Assembly: GCF_041083635.1 (NCBI RefSeq)
Contig: NZ_JBFPHB010000013.1
Span: 19,529-83,528 of the forward strand
From: Leptothrix ochracea
GTDB lineage: Bacteria; Pseudomonadota; Gammaproteobacteria; Burkholderiales; Burkholderiaceae_C
Direction of reading: 5' to 3'
DNA length: 64,000 nucleotides
Shown: piece by piece, positions 17,150 to 64,000 of the stretch
How the letters are laid out: the number at the start of each line of letters is the position of its first letter
Numbering within the stretch: position 1 is the stretch's first letter
Translations under genes and position numbers: made by a program
The notes under the pieces: model-generated
Database searches by the model: none
What the model was told of the DNA's origin: nothing
Seen by the model: only the letters and a program-made list of their open reading frames with translations

Positions 17150-17295
17150 GGGATTGAACGTCTAGGAAGGCACAAAGTCTGTGCAAAGGCGAGATTTTAG
17201 GGAGATCCCTTCTCATCAAGGGTGTCCGCTTGATCGTTTCGGCCCGACAATTCGGCACTTGAGTTACAGGACGGAAAGAATTGGAGTCCCCCAGC

Positions 17296-18177
17296 ATGAG
17301 CAGTACGAGCCCGAACAACAGCCTTGGCCGTGAAATTCAAACCGTCGGCGTCATCGGCGCTGGCACCATGGGCAACGGCATCGCCCAAGCCTGCGCGGTG
17401 TCCGGCATTCAGGTCGTGATGATCGACATCAGCGAAGCCGCCGTTCAAAAAGGCTTGGCCACCATCAGCGGCAGCCTTGATCGGCTGCTCAAAAAGGACA
17501 AGATCAGCGCTGAAGCCAAGGCCAGCGCCTTGGCCCACATCCGCATCTCGACCGACTACGCTGACTTGAAAGAAGCCCAGCTTGTCATCGAAGCAGCCAC
17601 CGAGAACGAAGCCCTCAAGGTCAAGATCCTCCAGCAGCTCGACGCCATGCTCGCGCCGGACGTGATCGTTGCGACCAACACCAGTTCGATCTCGATCACC
17701 AAGCTGGCCGCAACCACCCAGCGCGCCGACCGTTTCATCGGCATGCACTTCTTCAACCCGGTGCCGATGATGGCGCTGGTGGAGTTGATCCGAGGCTTGC
17801 AAACCAGCGACGCCACCCACGCCAAGGTCAAGACCCTGGCCGAAACGCTGGGCAAAACACCGATCACGGTCAAAAACGCGCCGGGCTTTGTGGTCAACCG
17901 CATCTTGATTCCGATGATCAACGAAGCCTTCTTCGTCTTGGCCGAAGGCTTGGCGACGCCAGAAGACATCGACGCCGGCATGAAACTCGGCTGCAACCAA
18001 CCCATCGGTCCCTTGGCCTTGGCCGACATGATCGGTTTGGATGTGTGTTTGGCGGTGATGGACGTCTACATGAAGGAGTTCAACGACTCCAAGTACCGCC
18101 CAGCCCCCTTGCTGAAGGAGTACGTCGCTGCGGGCTGGCTGGGCCGCAAGAGCGGTCGAGGCGTCTACAGCTATTGA
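17296..18177 (+). CDS. hbd: 3-hydroxybutyryl-CoA dehydrogenase
   Basis: GAGTMGNG, NTSSISI, GMHFFNP, PGFVVNR. Confidence 0.9.
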   Translation: MSSTSPNNSLGREIQTVGVIGAGTMGNGIAQACAVSGIQVVMIDISEAAVQKGLATISGSLDRLLKKDKISAEAKASALAHIRISTDYADLKEAQLVIEAATENEALKVKILQQLDAMLAPDVIVATNTSSISITKLAATTQRADRFIGMHFFNPVPMMALVELIRGLQTSDATHAKVKTLAETLGKTPITVKNAPGFVVNRILIPMINEAFFVLAEGLATPEDIDAGMKLGCNQPIGPLALADMIGLDVCLAVMDVYMKEFNDSKYRPAPLLKEYVAAGWLGRKSGRGVYSY

Positions 18178-18214
18178 GGCCCTCTGCTTGGTGCGCGCTC
18201 TGCCCCTCTGACCC

Positions 18215-19150
18215 ATGTCGACCAACGCCATCGTCATGCTCAATCGCCATGCGGGTCATGGCATGGCGAGCCAACTTCAAACCCCCATAGAAGCTTGGTT
18301 GAAACGCCACGCTCCGGGGGTGCCGCTGCTGGCACCGACCAGTGCCCACGCAGCCTTGGCCACGTTGATCATCTTGGCCCCACGCACCCGGGTGGTGCTG
18401 GTGGGGGGCGATGGCACGATCAACACCATGCTACCGGCCATGCTGCGGCGTGGTCACCGCCTCGGATTGGTGCCGGCGGGGCACACCAACAGTTTGGCCC
18501 ACGCCCTGGGACTGACGGGCATGACATGGCAAAACGCCTTGCCGTTCGCCCTCAATCACCCCTCGGCGGCGATCGACGTGGGGCAAATCGATACCGGCAA
18601 AGGCAGTTGGCCCTTTGCGTCTCGGCTCAGCATCGGTCTGGACGCGTTGATGGGATTGCGCGCCCAGATGGCCCCCGCTTTTTTGCGGAGCAGTGGCATG
18701 CGACGACTCTGGGGGGTGATGCACGAATGGCCCCGCAGCAAGGCCTTGCCGATGCGCGTCTGGGTGGACGGCAAGTTGGCCCATGAAGGGGACACGCTCG
18801 CGGTCTCTGTCACCAACACCCCCCGTGTGGTCGCGACCCGAGGGGATCGCACCGAACCCATCACCGCAGCGCCTCCGGGCACCATGGATGCCCTGATCCT
18901 TGGCAAGCTGGGCAGCCTGCGAGGCTTGTCAGCCATGATGCGCGCCACCCCCCAGCCCAGCCCCCCGAAGATCATCAGCATGCGTATGCATCAGATCCAG
19001 ATCGACTCGGGCACCCCGCTGCCTTTGTGTGCCGATGGCGAAGAGCTACCGGCCACGGGCCGGCTCGGCATCCAAGTCCTGCCTCGCTCTTTACAAGCCG
19101 TGGGGCAACACGCCGAGGCAGAACTCTGGGCGCCCTCGACCCAAAGTTAA
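18215..19150 (+). CDS. Diacylglycerol/lipid kinase family protein (YegS-like)
   Basis: GGDGT, LGLVPAG..N, ADGE. Confidence 0.8.
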   Translation: MSTNAIVMLNRHAGHGMASQLQTPIEAWLKRHAPGVPLLAPTSAHAALATLIILAPRTRVVLVGGDGTINTMLPAMLRRGHRLGLVPAGHTNSLAHALGLTGMTWQNALPFALNHPSAAIDVGQIDTGKGSWPFASRLSIGLDALMGLRAQMAPAFLRSSGMRRLWGVMHEWPRSKALPMRVWVDGKLAHEGDTLAVSVTNTPRVVATRGDRTEPITAAPPGTMDALILGKLGSLRGLSAMMRATPQPSPPKIISMRMHQIQIDSGTPLPLCADGEELPATGRLGIQVLPRSLQAVGQHAEAELWAPSTQS

Positions 19151-19167
19151 AGGCCGGCACGGTTCGC

Positions 19168-19665
19168 CTACCGACGGTGATCCATCGATTCAAACGCTGG
19201 TACAAATCGCGCCAACTCCGTCAGCGCACGCTCATAAACTTGGCGCTTGAACTCGATCACCATTTCCAGCGGCACCCAGTAATCGTGCCAACGCCAAGCG
19301 TCGAACTCGGGATGATCGGTGGCGCGCAGATTCACGTCACTGTCATGCCCTAAGAGCTGCAACAGAAACCAGATCTGCTTTTGACCCTTGTAATGCCCAC
19401 GGGCATCACGCCGGATGTAATGATCCGGCACCTCATAGCGCAGCCAGTCCCGAGTTCGGGCCAAGATGCGCACATGCTCAGGCAAAAGACCTATTTCTTC
19501 GTGCAATTCTCGGAACATGGCCTGCTCGGGCGACTCACCATATTTGATGCCGCCTTGCGGAAACTGCCAGGAGTGGGTGCGAATACGTTTGCCCCAGAAC
19601 ACCTGATTCCACGGATTGAGCAGGACGACGCCGACGTTGGGCCGGAAGCCTTCACGGTCGAGCAT
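19168..19665 (-). CDS. rppH: RNA pyrophosphohydrolase
   Basis: [12 protein letters not shown], Nudix box [22 protein letters not shown]. Confidence 0.96.
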
Positions 19666-19765
19666 AATCAGACCCCAGATTTTTAACTGAGCCGATTATT
19701 GCACCGACCTTGTGTGGCACAAGCCCGCACAAATCCCGATCCGGTGACGGCTCCCCCCGCCCATC

Positions 19766-21523
19766 ATGAAAGCATCCCAGTTCTTCATCGCCACGCTGAA
19801 GGAAGCGCCCGCCGACGCCGAGATCAACAGCCACAAGCTGATGATGCGCGCCGGTTTTATCAAGCGCCTCGGCGCGGGCATCTACAACTACATGCCGATG
19901 GGCTTGCGGGTCATCCGCAAGGTCGAAGCCATCATCCGAGAGGAAATGAACCGCGCTGGAGCCGTCGAGCTCCTGATGCCCATCGTGCAGCCGGCTGAGC
20001 TGTGGCAAGAAACGGGCCGCTTCGACAAGATGGGCCCCGAGTTGCTGCGCGTGAAGGATCGCCACGAGCGCGACTTCATCATCCAGCCGACCAGCGAAGA
20101 AGTCGTCACCGACATCGCCCGCCAAGAGCTGCGCAGCTACAAGCAGCTGCCGAAAAATTTCTATCACATCCAGACCAAGTTCCGCGACGAACGCCGGCCG
20201 CGCTTTGGCATCATGCGCGGGCGCGAGTTCACCATGAAGGACGCTTACTCCTTCGACCGTGACGCCGCCAGCGCGGCCAAGAGCTACGAGGCGATGTTTG
20301 CGGCTTACAAGCGCATCTTCGAGCGCTTCGGCTTGCAATACCGCGCGGTGGCCGCCGACACCGGCGCCATCGGTGGCGATCTCTCGCACGAGTTCCAAGT
20401 CATCGCCGACATCGGTGAAGACGCGATCATTTACTGCCCGACCAGCGATTACGCCGCCAACATCGAGCTGGCCGAAGCGCTGCCGCTGCTGGACAGCCGC
20501 GCCGCACCGACCCAAGCCTTGACGAAGCAGCCCACCCCGGTGACCACCGTCTGCGCCGATGTGGCCCGGATGCTGGGCGTGGACCTGAGCCGCACGGTCA
20601 AGTCGCTGGTGCTGGCCACCGACGAGTTGGGGGAGCACGGCGAGATCGTCAAGACCCGCGTCTGGCTGCTCTTGGTACGCGGTGACCACGATCTGAACGA
20701 AGTCAAGGCTGGCAAGGTCGAAGGGCTGAAAGGCGGCTTCCGCTTTGCGTCCACCCTTGAGATCGAAGAGCACTTCGGCTGCAAGCCGGGCTACCTTGGG
20801 CCGATCTTCAACAAAGAGGGCCTGACAAAGCCGGTGAAGGTCATCGCTGACCGTACCGTCGCGCGGATGAGTGACTTCGTCAGCGGGGCCAACGAGGAAG
20901 GTTTCCACCTCAGCGGCATCAACTGGGGCCGCGATCTGCCCGAGCCCGACGTGGTGGCCGACATCCGCAACGTCGTGGCGGGTGATCCCTCGCCCGACGG
21001 CCAAGGTGTGCTGGCCATTCAGCGCGGTATCGAAGTGGGCCACGTGTTCTACCTCGGCACCAAGTACTCCAAGGCGATGAACGCCACCTTCTTGGATGAA
21101 AACGGCAAGCCGCAGTTCATGGAAATGGGCTGCTACGGCATCGGCGTGACGCGCATCTTGGGTGCGGCCATTGAACAGAGCCACGACGCGCGCGGCATCA
21201 TCTGGCCGGACGCCATCGCCCCGTTCACCGTCGCCATCTGCCCCATCGGCATGGACCGCTCCGAAGCCGTCAAAGCGGCCGCGCAAGCGTTGCATGACGA
21301 GCTGCAAGCCGCTGGCGTCGATGTGATCCTCGACGACCGGGGCGAGCGTCCGGGGGCGATGTTTGCCGACTGGGAACTGATCGGCGTGCCGCACCGCGTG
21401 GTGATCTCCGACCGGGGCCTCAAAGAAGGCCAGGTCGAATATCAAGGGCGGCGCGATGCCGCGGCCACCCCAGTGGCAGCGGCAGAGGTCGCGGCCTTCT
21501 TGAAGGGCCGCGTGAAGGTTTGA
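19766..21523 (+). CDS. proS: Prolyl-tRNA synthetase (with editing insertion)
   Basis: [33 protein letters not shown]. Confidence 0.98.
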
Positions 21524-21527
21524 CGGC

Positions 21528-22145
21528 ATGACCCCCGCCCGACGCGCCCTGCTCGTCTTGGCGGGTGGGGCCTGCCTCAGCCTCAGCGGTGGGCAACCCG
21601 CCCAAGCGGGCTCACAAGTCGAAGAGCCCTTGGCCGATGCGGTCCGGGGCGCTTTGTCTTCGGCGGTGGCCGAACACGCCCCGCCCAAACCCGAATTCAG
21701 CCGCACCGAAGAGCGCATCGCCTACCTGCGCTGGCTGGGCAAGATGAGCCCCAAGCTGGCGCGGCGCTATCAAGACTTCGACAGCCGGCGCGAGTTTCTC
21801 GAAACCCTTTGGTACGAGAGCCGTCGCGCCGGGCTGGAGCCCAATCTGGTGCTCGGTTTGGTGGAAGTGGAAAGCGGCTTTCGCAAGTACGCCATTTCCA
21901 GTGCGGGAGCGCGCGGCTACATGCAGGTCATGCCTTTTTGGACTCGGCTGATCGGCGACGGCAATCCGGCAGCGCTGTTCCACATGCAGACCAATCTGCG
22001 CTTTGGCTGCGTGATCCTGCGCCACTACCTCGACCGCGAAAGCGGCGACGTCTTCATGGCGCTGGGCCGCTACAACGGCAGCCGAGGCCAAGCGCCCTAT
22101 CCCAACATGGTGCTCGGGGCCAAGAAGCGCTGGGAGTCCGGCTAG
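21528..22145 (+). CDS. Lytic transglycosylase (SLT domain)
   Basis: VEVESGF, GARGYMQVMP, ALGRYNG; Tat-like RR signal. Confidence 0.9.
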   Translation: MTPARRALLVLAGGACLSLSGGQPAQAGSQVEEPLADAVRGALSSAVAEHAPPKPEFSRTEERIAYLRWLGKMSPKLARRYQDFDSRREFLETLWYESRRAGLEPNLVLGLVEVESGFRKYAISSAGARGYMQVMPFWTRLIGDGNPAALFHMQTNLRFGCVILRHYLDRESGDVFMALGRYNGSRGQAPYPNMVLGAKKRWESG

Positions 22146-26044: not shown

Positions 26045-27132
26045 CGGTTTTCCAATTCAGCCAACAGCTCAGCCGCGCGGGCCGTTTGCAAGGCCGTCAA
26101 GATCTCATCCAAGGCACCGTCCATGATGGCGTCGAGTTTGTAGAGCGTGAGGTGGATACGGTGATCGGTCAGCCGCCCTTGCGGGAAGTTGTAGGTGCGG
26201 ATGCGGTCGCTGCGGTCACCGCTACCGATCAGGCTCTTGCGCGCTGCGGCTTCGCGGCTTTGGCGCTCAAGCCGGTCGCGGTCGCGCAAGCGCGCCGCCA
26301 ACACCGCCAAGGCCTTGGCCTTGTTGCGATGCTGCGAGCGATCGTCCTGACACTCCGCCACCAAGCCGGTGGGCAAGTGCGTGACGCGCACCGCCGAATC
26401 GGTCTTGTTGATGTGCTGCCCACCGGCACCGCTGGCGCGGAAGGTGTCGATGCGCAACTCGGCCGGGTTGATCGTGACTTCTTCGGTCGCATCGGGCTCG
26501 GGCAGCACCGCCACGGTGCAAGCGCTGGTGTGGATGCGGCCCTGGGATTCGGTCACCGGCACACGCTGCACACGGTGGCCGCCTGACTCAAACTTCAAAG
26601 CGGCGTACACCGCCTCGCCCTCCATGCGCAGCACCACTTCCTTGTAGCCGCCCAGATCCGACGCACTGGCCGACATCAACTCGGTCGTCCAGCCTTGGCG
26701 CTCAGCGTGGCGCAGATACATGCGCAGCAAGTCAGCGGCAAACAAGGCCGATTCATCGCCCCCGGCACCGGCACGAATTTCAAGAAAAACGTTGCGTTCA
26801 TCATCCGGGTCGCGCGGCACCAACGCCAAATGCAGCAAGGCTTCGAGCCGCACCAGATCAGCTTGGGCGGCGCGGACTTCTTCCTGCGCCATCTCGGCCA
26901 TCTCGGCGTCCAGCGCCGGGTCGGCCAACAAGGCCTCAGCTTCAGCCTGATCGCGCTCGCGCTGGGTGAATTGCGTCCAATAGCCCACCCGCTCGCTCAC
27001 TTGGGCGTATTCACGGTTGAGGGCGCGCAAGCGGGCCAAATCGGTCGCCACGCTGGGCTCAGCCAAGGCGGCGTCGATTTCAGCCAGACGCAGCGGCTGG
27101 CGATCAAGCTGGAGACGGAGGAAGGGGGTCAA
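26041..27132 (-). CDS. prfA: Peptide chain release factor 1
   Basis: GGQ motif, RVPVTE (PxT anticodon). Confidence 0.96.
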
Positions 27133-28448
27133 CGGGAACGATCTGCGAAAGGGGTCGTTGTATCGGCCCCTTGGGGACGTTCACCGCGCAAAAAGAGCCG
27201 CGTGACAGCGGTCGCCATCTGCGCGCGCTGCACCGGATCAGCGTTGTGCAACTCAGCCAAGGCACCGTGCAGCATCTTTTGGGTCAAACCCCGCGCCAAA
27301 GCCTCCAACGCCTCTTCGGGGGATGCGCCCTTGGCCAAGAGCTTGCGGGCCCGCCCAAGCTCCGCATGACGCCAAGCTTCGGCCTGAGTGTGCAAAGACT
27401 GAATCAGCGGCACGGTCGAGCGCTGATCAAGCCAGTGCACAAAGTTCTGCACACCCGACTCGATGATGGCTTCGGCTTGGGCCACTGCGGCTTGGCGCTT
27501 TTCGCTGGCGGTTTGCACCAGCGCCGACAAATCATCGACGGTGTAGAGGTAGACGTCATCCAGCCGCGCCACTTCGGGCTCGATATCGCGCGGCACGGCC
27601 AAATCGACCATGAAGATGGGCCGCCGACGTCGGGCCTTGAGCGCGCGCTCAACCGCCCCCAAACCGATGATCGGCACTGGGCTGGCGGTGCAGGAGATCA
27701 CGGCGTCGAATTCATGCAAGCGAGCCGGCACATCTTCGAGCCGCATGGCTTCGGCACCAAAGTGAGACGCCAGCTTTTCGCCGCGCTCCAGCGTGCGGTT
27801 CGCCACCGACATGTGGGCCGGATTGCGCGCTGCAAAGTGCGTCGCCGCCAGTTCAATCATTTCACCCGCACCCACAAAGAGGATGCGGATACGGCTCAGG
27901 TCCTCAAAAAGCTGAGCCGCCAACCGCACGGCTGCGGCCGCCATGCTGATGGAATGCGCGCCGATCTCGGTCGATGTCCGAACTTCCTTGGCCACCGAAA
28001 AAGAACGCTGAAAAAGCTGATGCAGCGTGGTGCCCAAAGCCCCGGCCGCGTCAGCTTCGCGCACCGCTTGCTTCATCTGGCCCAAGATTTGCGGCTCACC
28101 CAACACCATCGAATCCAGCCCAGAGGCCACCCGAAAGGCGTGGCGTGCGGCGGCGTGGCTTTCCATGACGACGGTGTGATCCATCAACTGATCCGGGCTC
28201 ACCCCCCCGCGCTGCGCCAGCCACTCCAAGGCCGGCCGAATCAGGGACGAAGCCCGATGTGAGCCCGTCGCGACGTACAGCTCGGTGCGGTTGCAGGTGG
28301 ACAGCAGCGCCGCCTCGGGTCCCAGCTTGGCAAGGTTGACACAGAACTCTTGCAAGGCCGGCGACAATTGTTCCGGGGCGAACGCAAACCGACCGCGCAG
28401 ATCAAGGGGTGCGGAATGATGGTTCAGGCTCAGGGCTACGACGCTCAT
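27129..28448 (-). CDS. hemA: Glutamyl-tRNA reductase
   Basis: [28 protein letters not shown]. Confidence 0.97.
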
Positions 28449-28477
28449 AACCTCGATTGTAAGATTGCGCAAAACTC

Positions 28478-28771
28478 ATGGGTCTGATTGACGCCTTTTG
28501 GCACCTTCTTAACTTCGTTGCACCGGCCTTTGCTGTCGGATTGATCAGCACCGGCATGGCGCGTTTGCTCTGGCGTAAGGAGCTCGCTGGCACGCCGTGG
28601 CAACGGATGGCGACATGGGCCATCGGTGCTGATTTGCTGGTTTTATGTGCGGGTTTGGCGCTAAGCGGCCATGACGGCAAAATGACCACTTATGCCAGTT
28701 TGCTGATGGTCAATGCGGGGGCGTTGTGGTGGGGAGGTTTCGGACCGGGAAAACGGGTTCGGCGTTCCTGA
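28478..28771 (+). CDS. Small hypothetical membrane protein
   Basis: Hydrophobic 97-aa ORF with DGKMTTY motif, divergent from hemA. Confidence 0.6.
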   Translation: MGLIDAFWHLLNFVAPAFAVGLISTGMARLLWRKELAGTPWQRMATWAIGADLLVLCAGLALSGHDGKMTTYASLLMVNAGALWWGGFGPGKRVRRS

Positions 28772-55436: not shown

Positions 55437-56810
55437 TCAATCGGGCTTGCCTTCTAGGGTTTTCAAACGCCGATACAAGGTCCGCTCACTGACGCCTAAA
55501 CGCTGGGCCAGTTCGGCACGGCTACCGCGATGCGCCAAGACTTCAGCGCGCAAAAGATCGCGGCTGAGATCGTGCAAGGAGCGTGGCGGGACGGCTGCTT
55601 CGGCGGGTGGCACGGTGCTGGGCGAAGCGGGTGGGGGGCTCACCGCTTCACGGGCAGCGCGACTGAACTCAGGTGTCAGGGCTTCTTCAACGTGGTGCGG
55701 CTCCAGCACCGGACCATCACAGAGCAAGCTGGCGCGCTCAAGCAAGTTGCGCAATTCGCGCACATTGCCGGGAAAATCATAGGCCGACAGCAGTTCGAGC
55801 GTGGCGGGAGCCAGCGTCACCGGCCCATCGCGCCGCAGGCGTGCCAGCAATGCGGGGACCAGCAGGGCCAGATCCTCACGACGTTCACGCAGCGGCGGCA
55901 AGTGGATCGGAAAGGTACTGAGCCGGAAATAGAGATCGGAGCGAAACAGATTCTGCGAAGCCATGTCGCGCAGATCACGATGCGTGGCGGAGATGACCCG
56001 AATATCGGCGTGACGCCACTCCGTCGAACCAACCCGGCGGTACGTGCCGGATTCAAGCAAGCGCAGCAACTTGACCTGCATCGGCAACGGAATCTCGCCG
56101 ACTTCGTCGAGAAACAGCGTGCCCCCGCTCGCTGATTCCACCAGACCTTGCTTTTGATGGGTGGCCCCGGTGAAGGAGCCTCGCTCGTGACCGAAAAGCT
56201 CGCTCTCAAACAAATGTTCGGGCAAGCTGGTGCAGTCCAGCACCACCAGCGGCTTGTGTGCCCGGCGGCTGGCGGCATGCACCGCACGCGCCACCAATTC
56301 TTTGCCCGTGCCCGACTCCCCTTGGAGCAACACCGTGGCCTCGCTCGGGGCCACGCGGGCCACCTTTTGCAACATGCGCTGGAAAGCCGGGGCACGCCCC
56401 ACCAGCTCCCATCCAGCTGCCGCTGCGGTCGCTGACGACACGGTGCGCACGGCTTCCATTTTTTCGACAAAGTACGCCATCTCGCCTTCGGCATTGCGCA
56501 AGGGCAACAACTCAATGTTGACGTAGGCCTCGCCCTTGGGCGTGTGGTGCAAATGCAAGACGCGCTCACGCTGTCCCGAACTACGGGCCTTGGCCAAAGG
56601 GCAACATTCACCCGCTTGATCGCAGGGCACGCTGAAGTGGTGCGAAACCTCGTAGCACGTCCGGCCCACCACACTGCCTTCGGGACTGAACTGCTTGCGA
56701 TACGCCGCGTTGGCCGCAAGGATGCGGTACTGGCGATCAAACAAGATATGCGGCTCGGCGAGCCCTTCTAGGTATGACACCAACTCGGGCAACAACTTCA
56801 CGCCAGGCAT
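55437..56810 (-). CDS. FisR-type PAS / sigma54 AAA+ / Fis-HTH activator
   Basis: [40 protein letters not shown]; PAS Cys52/63/69/70. Confidence 0.9.
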
Positions 56811-56840
56811 CTGACACCTCTTTTCATGGGTCGCCGATTG

Positions 56841-56875
56841 TGTCAGAGCACTGCCATAACTGTCAGTGAGCGTCA
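56841..56875 (+). promoter_or_regulatory. Candidate activator enhancer (phased TGYCA repeats)
   Basis: TGTCA 56841, TGCCA 56852, TGTCA 56861, CGTCA 56871. Confidence 0.6.
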
Positions 56876-56993
56876 GTAAAGCCATCCCCTGGATGCAACA
56901 AATCGCCCCCCTCGGGGGGGCTCCTTGAGGCTTAAACGTGCATAAATGCCTCGACGAAGGGGCGACGCCCCACTTTTGGACCTCATACACGGC

Positions 56994-57008
56994 TGGCATG
57001 GTTCTTGG
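56994..57008 (+). promoter_or_regulatory. sigma54-like promoter of the cyd operon
   Basis: TGGCATG-GTTC-TTGG: good -24 box, correct spacing, -12 C replaced by G. Confidence 0.6.
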
Positions 57009-57040
57009 AATACATAGGGTATTCACGCAAAGCATCTGCC

Positions 57041-57190
57041 ATGTCACCCAACCTCTCGCACGACCCGCACCACGCCCCAAAGCCAGTGCGCCAACGCCTC
57101 AGCCTATCCCTGAGCAGCGAACTAACCCTGATCATCCTCATCAAGCTCGTCGCACTCTGGATGCTTTGGGCCCTGACAAGGAGTGCATGA
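57041..57190 (+). CDS. CydP-like small membrane protein (49 aa)
   Basis: Single TM ELTLIILIKLVALWMLW ending 1 nt before the cydA ATG. Confidence 0.65.
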   Translation: MSPNLSHDPHHAPKPVRQRLSLSLSSELTLIILIKLVALWMLWALTRSA

Positions 57191-57191
57191 C

Positions 57192-58739
57192 ATGTCTGAC
57201 CAACTTGTGGATGTGTCACGGCTGCAATTCGCCGTCACCGCGCTTTATCACTTCCTGTTTGTGCCCTTGACCATCGGCATGACATGGATGCTGGTCATCA
57301 TGGAAAGCGTTTACGTCATGACCGGCCAAGTGGTTTGGAAGGACATGACGCGCTTTTGGGGCAAGTTGTTCGGCATCAACTTCGCCTTGGGCGTGACCAC
57401 CGGCATCACGATGGAGTTTCAGTTCGGCACCAACTGGGCTTACTACTCGCACTATGTGGGTGATGTCTTCGGCGCACCGCTGGCCATCGAAGGGCTGATG
57501 GCCTTCTTCCTCGAATCGACTTTCATCGGTCTGTTTTTCTTCGGCTGGGACCGTCTCGCGCGCACCCAACATTTGTTGGTGACCATCCTGATGGCGCTGG
57601 GCACCAATCTGTCCGCGCTGTGGATTCTGATCGCCAATGGCTGGATGCAAAACCCGGTCGGGGCTGAGTTCAGCTGGCAGACCATGCGCATGGAAATGGT
57701 CGATTTCTGGGCCGTGCTCTTCAACCCGGATGCTCAAGCGAAGTTTGTGCACACCGTCTCGGCCGGCTACGTGACCGGTGCGATGTTCGTGCTCTCGATC
57801 TCGTCGTGGTACTTGCTCAAAGGCCAAGACGTGGCCTTTGCCCGACGCAGCTTCCGCGTGGCCTCCGCCTTCGGTCTGGCCTCGGTGTGCTCGGTGATCG
57901 TGCTGGGCGATGAGTCCGGCTACACCGTGGGCGAAGCCCAGCAAACCAAGATGGCCGCGATCGAAGCCATGTGGGACACCGAACCCGCGCCAGCAGCTTT
58001 CAACCTGATCGCTTGGCCCAACGAGGCCGAGATGAAAAACGACTGGGCGATCGAAATTCCGTGGGTGATGGGGCTGATCGGCACGCGCTCCATCCACAAG
58101 GAAATTCCTGGCATCAAAGAACTGATCGCCCGCAACCGCACCCGCATCGTCTCGGGCATCGAAGCCGTCAAGGCACTGGACACGCTGCGCCACGATCGCA
58201 GCCACCGAGAAGCGGAGTCCGTCCTCAAGCAGCATCAAGCCAATCTCGGCTTCGGTTTGCTGATGCGCAAATATGTCAAGTCGATGGCGGAGATCACCCC
58301 CGCGCTGATCGACCAAGCGGCCCGCGACACCATCCCCAAGGTCACACCGATGTTCTGGGGCTTCCGTGCCATGGTCGGTTTGGGCATGGGCATGCTGCTG
58401 CTTTTTGCGACCGCGTTCTGGTCCACGCTCAAGGTGCGCTGCGGTGAACAACGCTGGTTGCTGCGCTGGGCCCTGCTGATGCTGCCCGCCCCTTGGCTGG
58501 CGTGTGAGTTGGGCTGGTTTGTGGCGGAGTATGGCCGCCAACCGTGGACGATCTACGGCGTGCTGCCCACGCACCTTTCGGTGTCAAGCATCAGTGTCGA
58601 GAGCGTCTATCGCTCTTTGGCGGGCTTTGTCGCCTTCTACACGGTGCTGCTGATCATCGAAATGGGTTTGATGATTCGCTTTGCTCGCCTCGGTCCCGGC
58701 AGTCTCGGTACCGGCCGCTACGCCAACGAAACCCATTGA
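57192..58739 (+). CDS. cydA: Cytochrome bd ubiquinol oxidase subunit I (long Q-loop)
   Basis: YHFLFVP, EFQFGTNW, KFVHT, KMAAIE, FRAMVG, GWFVAEYGRQPW. Confidence 0.97.
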   Translation: MSDQLVDVSRLQFAVTALYHFLFVPLTIGMTWMLVIMESVYVMTGQVVWKDMTRFWGKLFGINFALGVTTGITMEFQFGTNWAYYSHYVGDVFGAPLAIEGLMAFFLESTFIGLFFFGWDRLARTQHLLVTILMALGTNLSALWILIANGWMQNPVGAEFSWQTMRMEMVDFWAVLFNPDAQAKFVHTVSAGYVTGAMFVLSISSWYLLKGQDVAFARRSFRVASAFGLASVCSVIVLGDESGYTVGEAQQTKMAAIEAMWDTEPAPAAFNLIAWPNEAEMKNDWAIEIPWVMGLIGTRSIHKEIPGIKELIARNRTRIVSGIEAVKALDTLRHDRSHREAESVLKQHQANLGFGLLMRKYVKSMAEITPALIDQAARDTIPKVTPMFWGFRAMVGLGMGMLLLFATAFWSTLKVRCGEQRWLLRWALLMLPAPWLACELGWFVAEYGRQPWTIYGVLPTHLSVSSISVESVYRSLAGFVAFYTVLLIIEMGLMIRFARLGPGSLGTGRYANETH

Positions 58740-58752
58740 AGAAAGAGTCACC

Positions 58753-59892
58753 ATGCTTTTCGATTACGAAACCCTCAAGGTGATCTGGTGGCTGCTGGTG
58801 GGCCTGCTGCTGGTCGGTTTTGCCATCATGGACGGCCACGATATGGGCGTGGGCGCGCTGCTGCCCTTTGTTGGCCAAGGCGACGAGGAACGTCGTGTGG
58901 TCATCAACACCGTCGGCCCGCACTGGGACGGCAACCAAGTCTGGTTCATCACCGCCGGTGGCGCGCTCTTTGCCGCTTGGCCGCTGGTCTACGCCACCGC
59001 TTTTTCTGGTTTTTACTGGGCCATGCTGTCGGTCCTGTGGGCGCTGTTTTTGCGCCCCGTCGGCTTCGACTACCGCAGCAAGATCCATCACCCGCTCTGG
59101 CGTCAAACCTGGGACTGGGGTCTGTTCATCGGCGGGATCGTGCCCCCGCTGGTGTTTGGCATCGCCTTCGGCAACTTGCTGCAAGGGGTGCCCTTTTATT
59201 TCGATGACTTGCTGGTGTCGCACTACACCGGCAGCTTTGCCGACATGCTCAACCCCTTTGCCCTGCTGAGCGGCGGGGTGGCCTCGGCCATGATCATCCA
59301 GCATGGCGGCGTGTATTTGGCCCACCGCACCGAAGGTGATGTGCAGCGCCGATCTATGCGTGCAGCAAGCGTGGCGGGTGTGCTCTGTCTGATTTTGTTC
59401 GCAGGGGCCGGTTTGTGGCTGGAACGGATCCCCGGCTATGTGATCACGTCGGTGGTGGATACCGCTGCCCTGCCCGATCCGCTGAATAAAACGGTGATCC
59501 AGGTCGATGGGGCTTGGTTGAGCAACTTCCTGCACTGGCCGTGGCTGTGGCTGCTGCCCACCTTGACGTTTGCCGGCACAGGCCTTGCCATCGTGCTCGG
59601 CCAAGGGGGCCGCACAGGGTGGGCTTTTGTGGCCTCGTCGCTGTCCATGGCCGGCATCATCGGCACGGCCGGGGCCGCAATGTTCCCCTTTGTCATGCCC
59701 TCATCCACGCATCCGAACGCCAGCTTGACGGCGTGGGACAGTGTTTCCAGCCCGCTCACCCTCAGCATCATGCTGGTGGCCGCGGCTATTTTTATCCCGC
59801 TCATCGTCGTCTACACCAGTTGGGCGTATCGGGTGATGCGGGGCAAGGTCACGGTGGACCATATCCGCCGCAACGCTCACAGCGCCTATTGA
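58753..59892 (+). CDS. cydB: Cytochrome bd oxidase subunit II
   Basis: IMDGHDMG, GPHWDGNQVW, LRPVGFDYRSK, YTSWAY. Confidence 0.97.
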   Translation: MLFDYETLKVIWWLLVGLLLVGFAIMDGHDMGVGALLPFVGQGDEERRVVINTVGPHWDGNQVWFITAGGALFAAWPLVYATAFSGFYWAMLSVLWALFLRPVGFDYRSKIHHPLWRQTWDWGLFIGGIVPPLVFGIAFGNLLQGVPFYFDDLLVSHYTGSFADMLNPFALLSGGVASAMIIQHGGVYLAHRTEGDVQRRSMRAASVAGVLCLILFAGAGLWLERIPGYVITSVVDTAALPDPLNKTVIQVDGAWLSNFLHWPWLWLLPTLTFAGTGLAIVLGQGGRTGWAFVASSLSMAGIIGTAGAAMFPFVMPSSTHPNASLTAWDSVSSPLTLSIMLVAAAIFIPLIVVYTSWAYRVMRGKVTVDHIRRNAHSAY

Positions 59893-59982: not shown

Positions 59983-60129
59983 ATGTGGTATTTCACCTGG
60001 ATACTGGGCGTCGGCTTTGCCGTCTTGCTGGCCATTCTCAACGCCATGTGGGGCGAACACGCACTGGCACGGAGCGAGAGTCATCGTCCCGATCCAGCAT
60101 CCGCTGACACGGACGGATCACACCCTTGA
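59983..60129 (+). CDS. cydX: Cytochrome bd small subunit CydX (48 aa)
   Basis: MWYFTWILG..AILNAMWGE; GAGGAG SD; too short for the ORF track. Confidence 0.93.
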   Translation: MWYFTWILGVGFAVLLAILNAMWGEHALARSESHRPDPASADTDGSHP

Positions 60130-60362
60130 ATCTGCTGGTCCTTGGGGGTGCGTGTGCCATCGCGCTGGTGGTCACGATTTACCCCCCTATGCTTGTGCAA
60201 AGCGACGGCCACGTGGATCATGTGCGCCTCGCTTTACTGATGTTGGCCATGAGCACCGGTTTTATCCGGGGCGTCGGCTATATCCCGAGCCACCGCTTCT
60301 GGCGGTGGCTTTTTTCGACACCGACTGCTTTGGCATGGCTGTTGCTGGCAGTCTGGTGGTGA
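60126..60362 (+). CDS. ybgE: cyd operon YbgE-family membrane protein
   Basis: GFIRGVGYIP..FWRWLFS; TTG start overlaps cydX stop. Confidence 0.8.
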   Translation: MNLLVLGGACAIALVVTIYPPMLVQSDGHVDHVRLALLMLAMSTGFIRGVGYIPSHRFWRWLFSTPTALAWLLLAVWW

Positions 60363-60396
60363 TTCCTTGACGGGCCTTGCCCTGAACATCCACACC

Positions 60397-61035
60397 ATGC
60401 CTGACGTCTACTTTCGCCAACTCTATGACGCTCATCACGGGGCCCTGACCTATGTCTTGGGCGAGACCGAACAAGGTGAGGCCATCGTGATTGATCCCTT
60501 GGCGCAGGACAGCGTGCTGCTCGGCGCCATGTTGCAGGAACAAGGTTTGCGTCTGCGCTGGGTCCTGCACACGCATTTGCACCACGGCTCAGAACGCCAA
60601 GGCCTCAAGGCAGGTCATGTCTACAGCCGACAAATCACCCGAGGCCTTCCGACAGCCCACATCCCCAAAGAAACCCGGCTGGTCGATCACAACGAGCTGA
60701 TTGCTTTTGGTCAAGAGCGCCTGCGTGTCATTGCGACACCCGGTCACACACCCAGTTCCATCAGTTTTCTGTGGCGGGACCGCTTGTTTTGTGGGGACGC
60801 GCTGCACTTGGGCGGCTGCCCACCATGCAATGATCCCAGCAGCGATGCTGGGGCCATGTATGACAGCGTGACCACACACCTGCTCACGCTGCCCGGTGAA
60901 ACGCTGGTGTTTCCAGGACACGATCTGGCGGGCCGTAGCGTCTCCACCATCGCCGAGGAGCGTCGCCGCAACAAAGCCTTTTCAGGCCAGTCGCGGGACG
61001 CCTTCATGAGCCTCAGTCCAGCATTTCCGGCTTAG
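60397..61035 (+). CDS. ETHE1-type persulfide dioxygenase-like MBL protein with degenerate motifs
   Basis: FRQLYD, IDPL, TPGHT, FCGDAL, FPGHD, STIAEE; HxHxDH reads HLHHGS. Confidence 0.8.
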   Translation: MPDVYFRQLYDAHHGALTYVLGETEQGEAIVIDPLAQDSVLLGAMLQEQGLRLRWVLHTHLHHGSERQGLKAGHVYSRQITRGLPTAHIPKETRLVDHNELIAFGQERLRVIATPGHTPSSISFLWRDRLFCGDALHLGGCPPCNDPSSDAGAMYDSVTTHLLTLPGETLVFPGHDLAGRSVSTIAEERRRNKAFSGQSRDAFMSLSPAFPA

Positions 61036-62680
61036 CCATCCACTCACGGCCCTTGAGCATCGCCTCCCAATACAAGGGCGGCATGATCCGTTCCTTGAGC
61101 CACCAAGCCAGCCGTGAGGGGCGAGTGCCGTCGAGCAACCAACTCGGGAAGCTCGGGGCAACCTTGCCACCATAGGTGAACTCAGCCAACACGATCTTGC
61201 CGCGCTCAACGGTCAACGGGCAAGAGCCGTAGCCATCGTAGCTTGCCGAAACTTTGCGACCCTCACGGTCAGCAAGCAGGTTCTCAGCCACGACCGGAGC
61301 TTGCTTACGCGCCGCCGCCGCCGTCTTGGCGTTGGGCGTTGAGCTCACGTCGCCGAGCGCAAAGATGTTGTTGTAACGACGATGACGCAGCGTGGTTTGA
61401 TCCACCTCCACCCAGCCCGCAGCATCGGCCAAGGGACTGACGCGGATGAAGTCTGGGGCCTGCTGTGGCGGGCAGACGTGAATCATGTCGAAGCTGCGCT
61501 CCACCGTGTCCTTGGTGCCATCCGCCTTGGTGCGGGTGAACACCGCTTTACGACCCGGGCCGTCAATGGCGGTCAGGTTGTGCGTGAAGTTGAGGTCCAC
61601 GTTGTAGCGCTTGATGTATTCCATCAAGGCCGGTACGTAGTCGGCCACGCCGAACAACGCTGGCCCAGCGGTCATGAAGGAGATGTTGATGTCCTTCAAA
61701 CGGCCCTGACGCAGCCAGTGGTCACCGGAGAGATACATCGCCTTTTGCGGTGCACCCGCGCACTTGATCGGCATGGTCGGCTGGGTGAACAGCGCCTTGC
61801 CCGATTTCAACTCCTGCACCAACTTCCACGTGTAGGGCGCCAAGTCATAGCGATAGTTGGAGGTCACACCATTGCGACCCAACGTATCGATCAGCCCCTC
61901 GATGCCGTTCCAGTTCAGCTTGATCCCTGGGCAGACCACGAGATGCTTGTATTTGACGATCCGGCAGCCATCCAAAATCAAGGCATCTTGCTCAGGCTCG
62001 AACGCCGCCACCGCAGCCTTGATCCAATGCACGCCCCGGGGCAAAACCGCGCCCATCTGACGAACAGTTTGTTCTGCGGTGAACACGCCGCCACCCACCA
62101 AGGTCCAACCCGGCTGGTAGTAATGAACATCGGCCGGATCAATCACGGCGATATCCAAATGACGATCGCGCGCCAGCAAGCTCGCCGCCACAGCCGCCCC
62201 CGCAGCACCGCCCCCCACGATCACAATGTCGTGACGGGCATCAGCCACATCCACCGGCGTCTTGCCACCGTTGGCGATCCGGCGCACCACGCCATGCATC
62301 TTGAAACCAGCTTGACTGGAGCGTTCCAAAATTTCTGGCAAAGGCGTCCTGCCGGCTTGCGACAAGGCCCACAGCGTGACAGTACGGGTACCCGTGCGGC
62401 AATAACCGAGCGTGGGCTTGGGCAAGGAGTCGAAGACCTTGCCAAATTCGACGGCATTCTCATCGCTGACCTTGCCGGACTCCACCGGCAGGTACACGGC
62501 CACCATGCCCAGAGCTTCGGCAGCGCGACTGATTTCCTTGAACAGCGGCTGATCCCCAGCTTCCCCGTCAGGACGATTGCAAACCACCGAGCGAAAGCCC
62601 AGCTTGTTCAGTTCAGCAAGGTCAGCCGGCTGGATTTGCGCGGTGACTGATAGCTCAGGCGTAAGGGCCCGGATTTCCAT
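61013..62680 (-). CDS. sqr: DUF442 (rhodanese-like) fused to type II sulfide:quinone oxidoreductase
   Basis: C34 (VCNRPDGE), C94 (YCRTGTR); GGGAAG, HYYQPGWTLVGGG, KCAGAPQK, YGSCPL. Confidence 0.93.
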   Translation of the reverse strand: MEIRALTPELSVTAQIQPADLAELNKLGFRSVVCNRPDGEAGDQPLFKEISRAAEALGMVAVYLPVESGKVSDENAVEFGKVFDSLPKPTLGYCRTGTRTVTLWALSQAGRTPLPEILERSSQAGFKMHGVVRRIANGGKTPVDVADARHDIVIVGGGAAGAAVAASLLARDRHLDIAVIDPADVHYYQPGWTLVGGGVFTAEQTVRQMGAVLPRGVHWIKAAVAAFEPEQDALILDGCRIVKYKHLVVCPGIKLNWNGIEGLIDTLGRNGVTSNYRYDLAPYTWKLVQELKSGKALFTQPTMPIKCAGAPQKAMYLSGDHWLRQGRLKDINISFMTAGPALFGVADYVPALMEYIKRYNVDLNFTHNLTAIDGPGRKAVFTRTKADGTKDTVERSFDMIHVCPPQQAPDFIRVSPLADAAGWVEVDQTTLRHRRYNNIFALGDVSSTPNAKTAAAARKQAPVVAENLLADREGRKVSASYDGYGSCPLTVERGKIVLAEFTYGGKVAPSFPSWLLDGTRPSRLAWWLKERIMPPLYWEAMLKGREWMAKPEMLD

Positions 62681-62757
62681 GACTGATTTCCCTAAAGAAG
62701 AGTGGAGACGCAAGAGAGTGACGGGGTTGAAGCTAGATGACAACCTTCTGATCTAGC

Positions 62758-62772
62758 TCAAGATTCGTGCCA
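62758..62772 (-). promoter_or_regulatory. sigma54-like promoter of sqr
   Basis: Minus strand TGGCACG-AATC-TTGA: perfect -24 box, -12 C replaced by A. Confidence 0.7.
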
Positions 62773-62868
62773 ACATCGACGACACCATTAGGCTGCGATT
62801 TTCATCACACATTCAGATTAGGTGCGTATCAATCGTTGCAAACCTTTGCGCGGTTCGCCCCAAACCCC

Positions 62869-62923
62869 TGCCAGCCATGTCATATCACTGCCAGTCCTTG
62901 GCATGAAATGGCACAAATTGGCA
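62869..62923. promoter_or_regulatory. Candidate symmetric (3+3) enhancer array between sqr and the TDT gene
   Basis: TGCCA 62869, TGTCA 62878, TGCCA 62889, then TGGCA 62899, 62909, 62919. Confidence 0.65.
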
Positions 62924-63010
62924 GTCTCGCTGCACCGCCTGCCTGCGCTTGTTGGTTTCGAACAAGACCCCATACCGGCACGAGGGTACCGCAGAGGGTA
63001 TTCTTTCACC

Positions 63011-64000
63011 ATGGCAAAAAACCCGACTCCTCTCAAATTTTTGGCCCCTGGCTGGTACGCCATCGTCATGGGCTTGGCTGGTTTATCGCTGGCATGGCAA
63101 CGCGCCACCCCCTTCATGGGCGAACAAGCCAACATGGTCGCATGGGCCCTTGGTGGCTTGGCCGTGGTCGTTTTTGCGGTCTTGGCACTCCTCACCGTGA
63201 TCCGTGGTCAACGCTATCCTGAGGCTTGGGCCGACGATCGCCGTCACCCGGTGCGCCACACGTTCATTGCCACCTTGCCCATCTCTATGTTGTTGCTGGC
63301 GACCGTGGCCGTGGCGTTGAACGGGGTGAGTGAACCCGCACGTTGGCTTTGGTGGATGGGCAGCCTCGGGCAGTTTGTCGTCTCGATTTGGGTGCTGGCT
63401 CGCTGGTGGCTCGGCCCGCAAGCGGGTGGCTTGGTCTGGGCCAGCGTCACCCCGGCTCTTTTGATTCCGATCGTCGGCAATGTGATCGCGCCCTTGGCGG
63501 GTGTCCCCTTGGGCCATACCGAGTGGGCGGCGGCGCAATTTGGCATTGGCTTGCTCTTTTGGCCGATCATCTTGGCCCTTCTCGTCATCCGCGTGGCGAT
63601 CCAAGGTTTGTGGCCTGAACGATTCATGCCAACGCTGTTCATTTTGATCGCCCCGCCAGGCGTTGGTGGGTTGGCCCTGCTGCAACTTGGCGCACCGAGT
63701 TTGGTGGGATGGGCGCTTTGGGGAATCGCCTTTTTCAGTTTTGTGTGGATCGCGACCCAGATGCCACGCATCACTGGCCTGCCCTTTTCGCCCATGCACT
63801 GGGCGATGTCGTTCCCAATGACCGCCTTGGTTGCCTTGACGTTGAAGCTGGCCACGCCCGGCAGCGGTATGGGTTTGCTGGGCATCACCTTGCTGGCGGC
63901 GACCTCCTTGATCGTCTTGAGCTTGGTCACCGCCACCATCCGGGGTTTGCGTGAGGGCACCCTCCTCGCTCCCGAGCAGATTGCCGTGATTCAGCCCACT
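63011..64000 (+). CDS. TDT (TehA/SLAC1) family anion transporter, 3' end off window
   Basis: Manual translation MAKNPTPLKFLAPGWYAIVMGLAGLSLAW..FIPIVGNV..WAMSFP; many TM helices. Confidence 0.85.
   Translation, partial: MAKNPTPLKFLAPGWYAIVMGLAGLSLAWQRATPFMGEQANMVAWALGGLAVVVFAVLALLTVIRGQRYPEAWADDRRHPVRHTFIATLPISMLLLATVAVALNGVSEPARWLWWMGSLGQFVVSIWVLARWWLGPQAGGLVWASVTPALLIPIVGNVIAPLAGVPLGHTEWAAAQFGIGLLFWPIILALLVIRVAIQGLWPERFMPTLFILIAPPGVGGLALLQLGAPSLVGWALWGIAFFSFVWIATQMPRITGLPFSPMHWAMSFPMTALVALTLKLATPGSGMGLLGITLLAATSLIVLSLVTATIRGLREGTLLAPEQIAVIQPT

Follow-up and report, generated by a model that had tools for sequence, protein, structure and literature searches.

A phased half-site array as a predicted FisR-type enhancer of the sigma-54 promoter of sqr

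In Escherichia coli, the NtrC enhancer of glnAp2 and the three NorR sites of norV place activator-binding sites approximately 100-150 bp upstream of a -24/-12 promoter. The presence of multiple sites in the NtrC and NorR enhancers supports assembly of the AAA+ ring, and bending of the intervening DNA helps the ring to contact the promoter. The sites themselves are inverted repeats, each serving as a dimer site. Closest to the locus described here are FisR and the fisR/pdo-sqr locus of Cupriavidus pinatubonensis JMP134, reportedly the subject of work by Li et al. 2017 (Mol Microbiol 105:373; doi 10.1111/mmi.13725). According to two reviews, FisR senses reactive sulfur species via three conserved cysteines (PMC9774590; PMC12754779). 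FisR is also found in A. baumannii, in a two-sensor arrangement of FisR and BigR (PMC7315123). The papers citing FisR that our analysis covered give no FisR binding-site sequence.

The 64-kb stretch of DNA analysed here, hereafter the window, resembles the JMP134 system in its activator, which combines a sensor domain containing three cysteines with an AAA+ domain and a helix-turn-helix of the Fis type, and in the predicted targets of this activator, sqr and pdo, behind sigma-54 promoters. Domain matches and motifs identify the gene at 55437-56810 on the minus strand as encoding a FisR-like sigma-54 activator, with a PAS_4 domain, a Sigma54_activat domain (PF00158, E=5.5e-67) and an HTH_8 domain (PF02954). 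The AAA+ domain carries the Walker A motif GESGTGK and a sigma-54-contact loop of the GAFTGA type (GSFTGA), and the sensor cysteines Cys52, Cys63 and Cys70 form a C-x10-C-x6-C pattern with spacings of 11 and 7 residues; these cysteines and domains are those expected of a FisR-type activator. The same cysteine spacing is seen in alignments with the activators of pdo-sqr loci from Cupriavidus, Paraburkholderia, Pandoraea and Pseudomonas, and the Fis-type recognition helix, comprising 10 residues at the end of the helix-turn-helix, is identical in these relatives, with identity between the activators being only 46-53%. The activator gene is divergent from cydA and lies 6 kb from sqr. It also sits at a strain-variable boundary, as the same-species assemblies L081/L083 and L082/L084 diverge right after it (locus ~17250-21668). 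On its 3' side, some assemblies have type VI secretion genes (FHA, PP2C, TagF and IcmF), and others, like the window, have a protein of 763-765 aa with no Pfam match.

The array consists of six phased half-sites at 62868-62925. Reading the plus strand, its left half contains CTGCCA (62868-62873), TGTCA (62878-62882) and ACTGCCA (62887-62893), and its right half contains TGGCA (62899-62903), TGGCA (62909-62913) and TGGCAGT (62919-62925). The pentamers of the six repeats (62869-62923) start at steps of 9, 11, 10, 10 and 10 bp. An earlier note on this DNA had described three TG(C/T)CA facing three TGGCA around a TGCCA-N5-TGGCA palindrome at steps of about 10 bp, and each of these elements was found in the sequence. 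The extended form typical of the wider family occurs in only three of the six repeats, as CTGCCA at repeat 1 and ACTGCCA at repeats 3 and 6. At the junction of forward and reverse half-sites, the central palindrome TGCCAGTCCTTGGCA (62889-62903) is the sole TGCCA-N5-TGGCA in 64 kb (expected 0.14), and is weak evidence when taken alone because 13 of 100 shuffles contained at least one match. The run TGGCA-N5-TGGCA-N5-TGGCA has an expectation of 0.02 per window when up to one mismatch is allowed. The array is the densest TGCCA/TGGCA cluster of the window, with five strict sites in 55 bp, a number reached in none of 200 mononucleotide shuffles, 11 of which contained four. These observations confirm that the array is present and is not a chance pattern. 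Elsewhere in the window, TGGCACGCCGTGGCAACGGATGGCG at 28588-28612, upstream of hemA (27129-28472, minus strand), is one mismatch away from three phased TGGCA. We rejected it as a FisR-type array and regard it as probably a chance occurrence, as its TGCCA is not preceded by C, unlike 84% of family sites.

Support for a link between array and activator comes from relatives. A scan of genome contigs with the SQR protein yielded 80 loci with orthologous SQR (65-71% identity). Of these, 34 also encode a homologue of the activator, whose gene is in most cases divergent from pdo-sqr and frequently has cydA after it. When a cluster is defined as three or more CTGCCA/TGGCAG hexamers in a span of 90 bp, all but one of the sqr loci with an activator gene contain one (33 of 34), compared to 1 of the 46 without the gene; these clusters lie in the gap between the activator gene and pdo or between the activator gene and cydA. 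The activator-bearing loci have intergenic phased runs of (A)CTGCCA that often end in CTGCCA-N2-5-TGGCAG. The consensus derived from 166 sites reads A (56%) C (84%) TGCCA, and the spacing between sites of the same orientation peaks at 10 bp; the convergent pair is usually 7-9 bp from start to start in the more distant relatives. We found a strong sigma-54 box at a median distance of 116.5 bp (range 82-153 bp) from the centre of the array in 40 array-promoter pairs. Because of the co-occurrence with the activator gene, the half-site consensus and the spacing between array and promoter, the array is most likely a FisR-type upstream activating sequence (UAS) that binds the activator and acts as an enhancer of the sigma-54 promoter of sqr. 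The (A)CTGCCA motif may not yet have been described as a family-wide element in the literature covered here, namely papers that cite FisR.

The sqr gene (61013-62680, minus strand) encodes a 555-aa protein in which a TIGR01244/BLH sulfurtransferase-like domain is fused to sulfide:quinone oxidoreductase, and is most likely the gene that the array is predicted to activate. Its 3' end overlaps that of the convergent plus-strand pdo frame by 23 bp (61013-61035). The sigma-54 promoter of sqr, TGGCACGAATCTTGA, lies at 62758-62772 on the minus strand, with the -24 G at 62770, the -12 A at 62758 and a predicted start at ~62746. Distances from the -24 G are 98-153 bp to the individual repeats and 126 bp to the centre of the array, in good agreement with the 100-150 bp given in the earlier note and within the range of 82-153 bp seen in relatives; together with the co-occurrence of array and activator, this upholds the earlier proposal that the array is an enhancer for a sigma-54 sqr promoter. 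Among the four lineages whose alignments cover the sqr box, a single position varies (C/T). Lineage alignments also delineate a conserved block of 47 bp at the midpoint between array and promoter (62797-62843). Within this block, we take TATCAATCGTTGC (62827-62839) as a candidate DNA-bending site because it matches 11 of 13 IHF consensus positions, with its 3' part off by one base. Of 40 relatives, 12 have a strict IHF-like consensus in the interval from array to promoter. A bend in this interval, whether made by IHF or intrinsic to the DNA, is common in enhancers of this class but not obligatory.

A second array precedes the cyd-pdo operon. It lies at 56841-56884 on the plus strand and has all five of its repeats in forward orientation (TGTCA, TGCCA, TGTCA, CGTCA and AGCCA, with spacings of 11, 9, 10 and 9). 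Between its centre and the -24 of the sigma-54 box TGGCATGGTTCTTGGA (56994-57009, plus strand) there are 133.5 bp; behind this box, the plus-strand operon comprises cydA, cydB, cydX, ybgE and an MBL-fold gene that is persulfide-dioxygenase-like (pdo). The box at the equivalent cyd place in L034 is TGGCACGGTTCTTGGG. This arrangement predicts that the second array serves cydAB-cydX-ybgE-pdo, which would place a cytochrome bd oxidase in the sulfide regulon. Arrays before cydA are also seen in pseudomonads and others. In metatranscriptome run X1, contigs over cydAB (56000-59802) have depths of 14-23, and one RNA contig with a mean depth of 133 spans pdo, sqr, the intergenic region and TDT (60104-64000). 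This contig starts near the cydX/ybgE junction, and ybgE-pdo may therefore be preceded by an internal promoter or a processing site.

Both of the main promoters lack the -12 C, as had been noted from the sequence, with TTGA at sqr and TTGG in the cyd box. The suggestion that this substitution is a signature of the regulon found support in the form of a lineage-conserved trait of orthologous Burkholderiales promoters. A base other than C at -12 occurs in 19 of 40 boxes from relatives (TTGA in 11, TTGT in 5, and TTGG, GTGA and ATGA in 1 each); these boxes are mostly from Burkholderiales, and pseudomonads use TTGC or GTGC. The box of L040 is identical to the sqr box of the window, and near-identical boxes are found in many Burkholderiales.

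These elements suggest the following mechanism. The activator, encoded 6 kb away, would bind the (A)CTGCCA half-sites through its Fis-type helix-turn-helix, and because the half-sites are one helical turn apart, all of them would lie on one face of the DNA. Modification of the three sensor cysteines by persulfide or polysulfide would then cause the bound activator to form an active AAA+ ring. A bend at the midway block, probably made by IHF, would bring this ring to the sigma-54 RNA polymerase at TGGCACGAATCTTGA, 126 bp away, where ATP hydrolysis would open the promoter and allow transcription of sqr. The second array would do the same for the cydAB-pdo operon. TDT, on the other hand, is most likely not driven by the array and would instead use a promoter and operator of its own beside its start codon.

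Transcripts of sqr, pdo and TDT are present in microbial-mat metatranscriptomes. The RNA contigs on the sqr side reach ~62887-62904 (X21 and X22), within the left half of the array and approximately 140-160 nt upstream of the predicted sigma-54 start, and a single sigma-54 start therefore does not explain them. One possible, though unlikely, explanation is that sqr has tandem promoters, with a second weak minus-strand promoter in or just beyond the array (start ~62890-62905) that is repressed by the bound activator as this switches on the sigma-54 promoter downstream; such a promoter, similar to the glnAp1/glnAp2 pair of E. coli, would add to the sigma-54 promoter and not replace it. Some parts of the cyd region are not covered at all in the runs concerned, which points to low DNA carry-over, and the contigs running past the predicted start are consistent with such a second promoter. 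However, a consensus scan of 62600-63100 found no sigma-70-like hexamer pair on either strand. In addition, the contigs carry no strand information and their depths are contig-wide means, and hence the RNA could be a plus-strand or pervasive transcript. An Rfam search gave no match.

TDT (63011-64000, plus strand), a TDT/SLAC1-family transporter gene of 331 aa in full, is cut by the end of the window. The earlier note had assigned the array to both of the divergent genes and had proposed a GG-N10-GC string overlapping the last repeat as a sigma-54 box for TDT. The string TGGCAGTCTCGCTGCA is indeed at 62919-62934 on the plus strand and overlaps the sixth repeat, and it is a good GG-N10-GC match shared by the two haplotypes of the species and a variant strain. 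The idea of a shared bidirectional enhancer, in which the array also activates TDT via TGGCAGTCTCGCTGCA with the -24 doubling as repeat 6, additionally draws on the functional ties of TDT to the regulon, as TDT directly follows pdo in the cyd-pdo operon of L091, and the contig depths of TDT, sqr and pdo co-vary in three metatranscriptomes. Nonetheless, we consider a shared enhancer quite unlikely. In alignments, the -12 GC of the proposed box is absent in all four sister lineages, L087 (TGGCAGTCTCTCTTCC), L089, L093 and L094. The -24 of the box is separated from the array centre by 25 bp, and from even the farthest repeat by no more than 52 bp, compared to 82-153 bp in the 40 array-promoter pairs, and a distance of 25 bp therefore leaves little room for a DNA loop. 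There is also no RNA start near ~62946, the TDT contigs of two metatranscriptomes beginning instead at 62999 (X21) and 63013 (X22), where depth jumps from 4.5 to 54 and from 0 to 14, respectively; these contigs are unstranded, and their starts are also compatible with 5' processing. Finally, a separate conserved operator-like element sits at the start of TDT. The string TGGCAGTCTCGCTGCA is thus most likely the sixth half-site followed by a chance GC, and on the grounds of conservation, spacing and RNA starts the earlier assignment is supported for sqr and not for TDT through 62919-62934. As another sigma-54 box for TDT, CGGCAC-N..-CCGCA (62976-62993) was rejected, given its 12-nt spacing and its lack of conservation.

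Sister lineages do not share the symmetry of the array. Loci with the sqr/TDT layout came only from searches with TDT homologues: TDT was beside sqr in none of the 80 loci from the scan with SQR protein, and a scan of metagenome contigs with TDT gave only 3 weak loci. The four sister lineages L087, L089, L093 and L094, whose TDT is 86-90% identical, keep either the same layout or the region upstream of TDT. Their arrays are 4+3 in L087, 4+4 in L094, mostly forward in L089 and all reverse in L093, and the central palindrome is kept in L087 as CTGCCATTCGTTGGCAG. The array persists in these lineages although its individual repeats turn over, and the sqr box and the midway block are kept. In pseudomonads, symmetric 2+2 arrays are also found in the gap separating cydA from the 3' end of the activator gene, a position from which they can serve only one promoter. 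Because its composition varies between sister lineages, the 3+3 symmetry is best viewed as one state of a fast-evolving cluster and not as a conserved design. Within the species, two haplotypes have six intergenic differences and a further variant strain is seen in RNA contigs; none of the eight variable strain positions in 62854-62928 falls within a pentamer.

The element at the start of TDT provides a candidate for its own control. A palindrome, TACCGCAGAGGGTA (TACC-N6-GGTA, 62987-63000), overlaps the hexamer TATTCT, the two together spanning 62987-63004 on the plus strand and ending 6 nt before the TDT ATG. We propose them as a candidate CstR/CsoR-type operator together with the -10 box of a promoter belonging to TDT. 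A single copy of TAC[CG]-N6-[CG]GTA immediately precedes TDT in seven lineages (in relatives at L087:3977, L089:3977, L091:2318, L092:3919, L093:2977 and L094:195), and in three gene contexts, with TDT being divergent from sqr, located after pdo (L091) or divergent from soxC (L092). The palindrome of the window is similar to the published CstR cst operator ATACCCTTATGGGGTAT, as is ATACCCTGCTGGGTAT in Ideonella (L092); the spacer of the published operator is one base longer (PMC8643695). In L098-L100, three genomes with more distant homologues of TDT, the gene immediately preceding TDT encodes a CsoR-family protein (PF02583) with two cysteines. Searches with CsoR-family sequences, including those from L098-L100, found no such gene in the 64-kb window. 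Given the conserved palindrome, its likeness to the cst operator and the PF02583 neighbours in L098-L100, TDT is probably governed by a separate, FisR-independent CstR-like repressor. A leaderless TDT mRNA initiated from TATTCT (62999-63004) is a further suggestion, which fits the contig start at 63013 in X22 and fits that at 62999 in X21 less well. With regard to function, the yeast sulfite pump Ssu1 is a member of the TDT family. This membership and the linkage of pdo to TDT in L091 suggest by analogy that TDT may act as a sulfite exporter, a role comparable to that of TauE in the FisR operon of A. baumannii (PMC7315123). In L091 (1619-3372), TDT is 69% identical to that of the window and the genes run cydB-cydX-pdo-TDT on a single strand, uninterrupted by sqr. 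Compared with such a layout, the window gives the impression that the stand-alone inverted sqr came, together with its array, to interrupt an older cyd-pdo-TDT operon by insertion or rearrangement.

A further role for the last half-site can also be imagined. In this species alone, a young sigma-54 promoter controlling the sulfite-exporter-like TDT may have taken over this half-site as its -24 element, with activator and polymerase competing or cooperating there, while the FisR enhancer would consist of single half-sites of 5-7 bp, approximately one for each of the six protomers of a ring. Unlike the classic dimer-site model, the half-site part of this proposal would cover both the spacing of one helical turn and the occurrence of sites in either orientation; taken as a joint claim, it strikes us as very doubtful. 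That another protein binds the repeats, or that they are a chance or structural feature unrelated to the activator, is highly improbable: the link between array and activator is a prediction from sequence and TGGCA is the core of the sigma-54 -24 element, so that sigma-54 holoenzyme could in principle touch the repeats, but the array tracks the activator gene across genera (33/34 versus 1/46), keeps a fixed distance to the sigma-54 box and conserves its pentamers while the spacers vary, and a GC at the -12 (N10) spacing accompanies only repeat 6 on the plus strand, being absent for plus-strand repeats 4 and 5 and minus-strand repeats 1 to 3.

Reading the array as a FisR-type enhancer of sqr does not overturn current understanding, as it is an instance of the known FisR-type sigma-54 enhancers. 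It does tie a motif, (A)CTGCCA repeated every 10 bp, to FisR-class sensors of sulfide and persulfide in Burkholderiales, pseudomonads and others, through which FisR regulons should become predictable from sequence alone. It also widens the predicted FisR regulon from pdo-sqr to the cytochrome bd oxidase operon. The conserved non-C base at -12 raises a small, testable point on how tightly such sigma-54 promoters stay silent. At the level of the locus, our analysis suggests that two sensors share the sulfide response, with FisR acting on sqr and cyd-pdo and TDT being left to a CstR-like repressor. This predicted split is comparable to the pairing of FisR and BigR in A. baumannii (PMC7315123).

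Compared with the Cupriavidus locus, the window shares the type of array and differs in its arrangement. In Cupriavidus L074, where the activator and pdo-sqr genes are divergent, the same kind of repeat array is present as CACTGCCACGACTGCCATCCCTGCCACCTGACTGCCAGAAATGGCAGCC. In the window, 6 kb separate the activator gene from an inverted sqr that stands by itself, and pdo has been joined onto the cydAB operon with an array of its own. The arrays also differ in form: that of the window is symmetric (3+3) with a central pair 10 bp apart, whereas those of the Cupriavidus type have several forward repeats and one reverse repeat at 7-9 bp. The window array resembles the NtrC and NorR enhancers in placing several sites upstream of a -24/-12 promoter, but unlike those enhancers it presents a half-site of 5-7 bp at each helical turn, in either orientation, with a mix of orientations that shifts between lineages.
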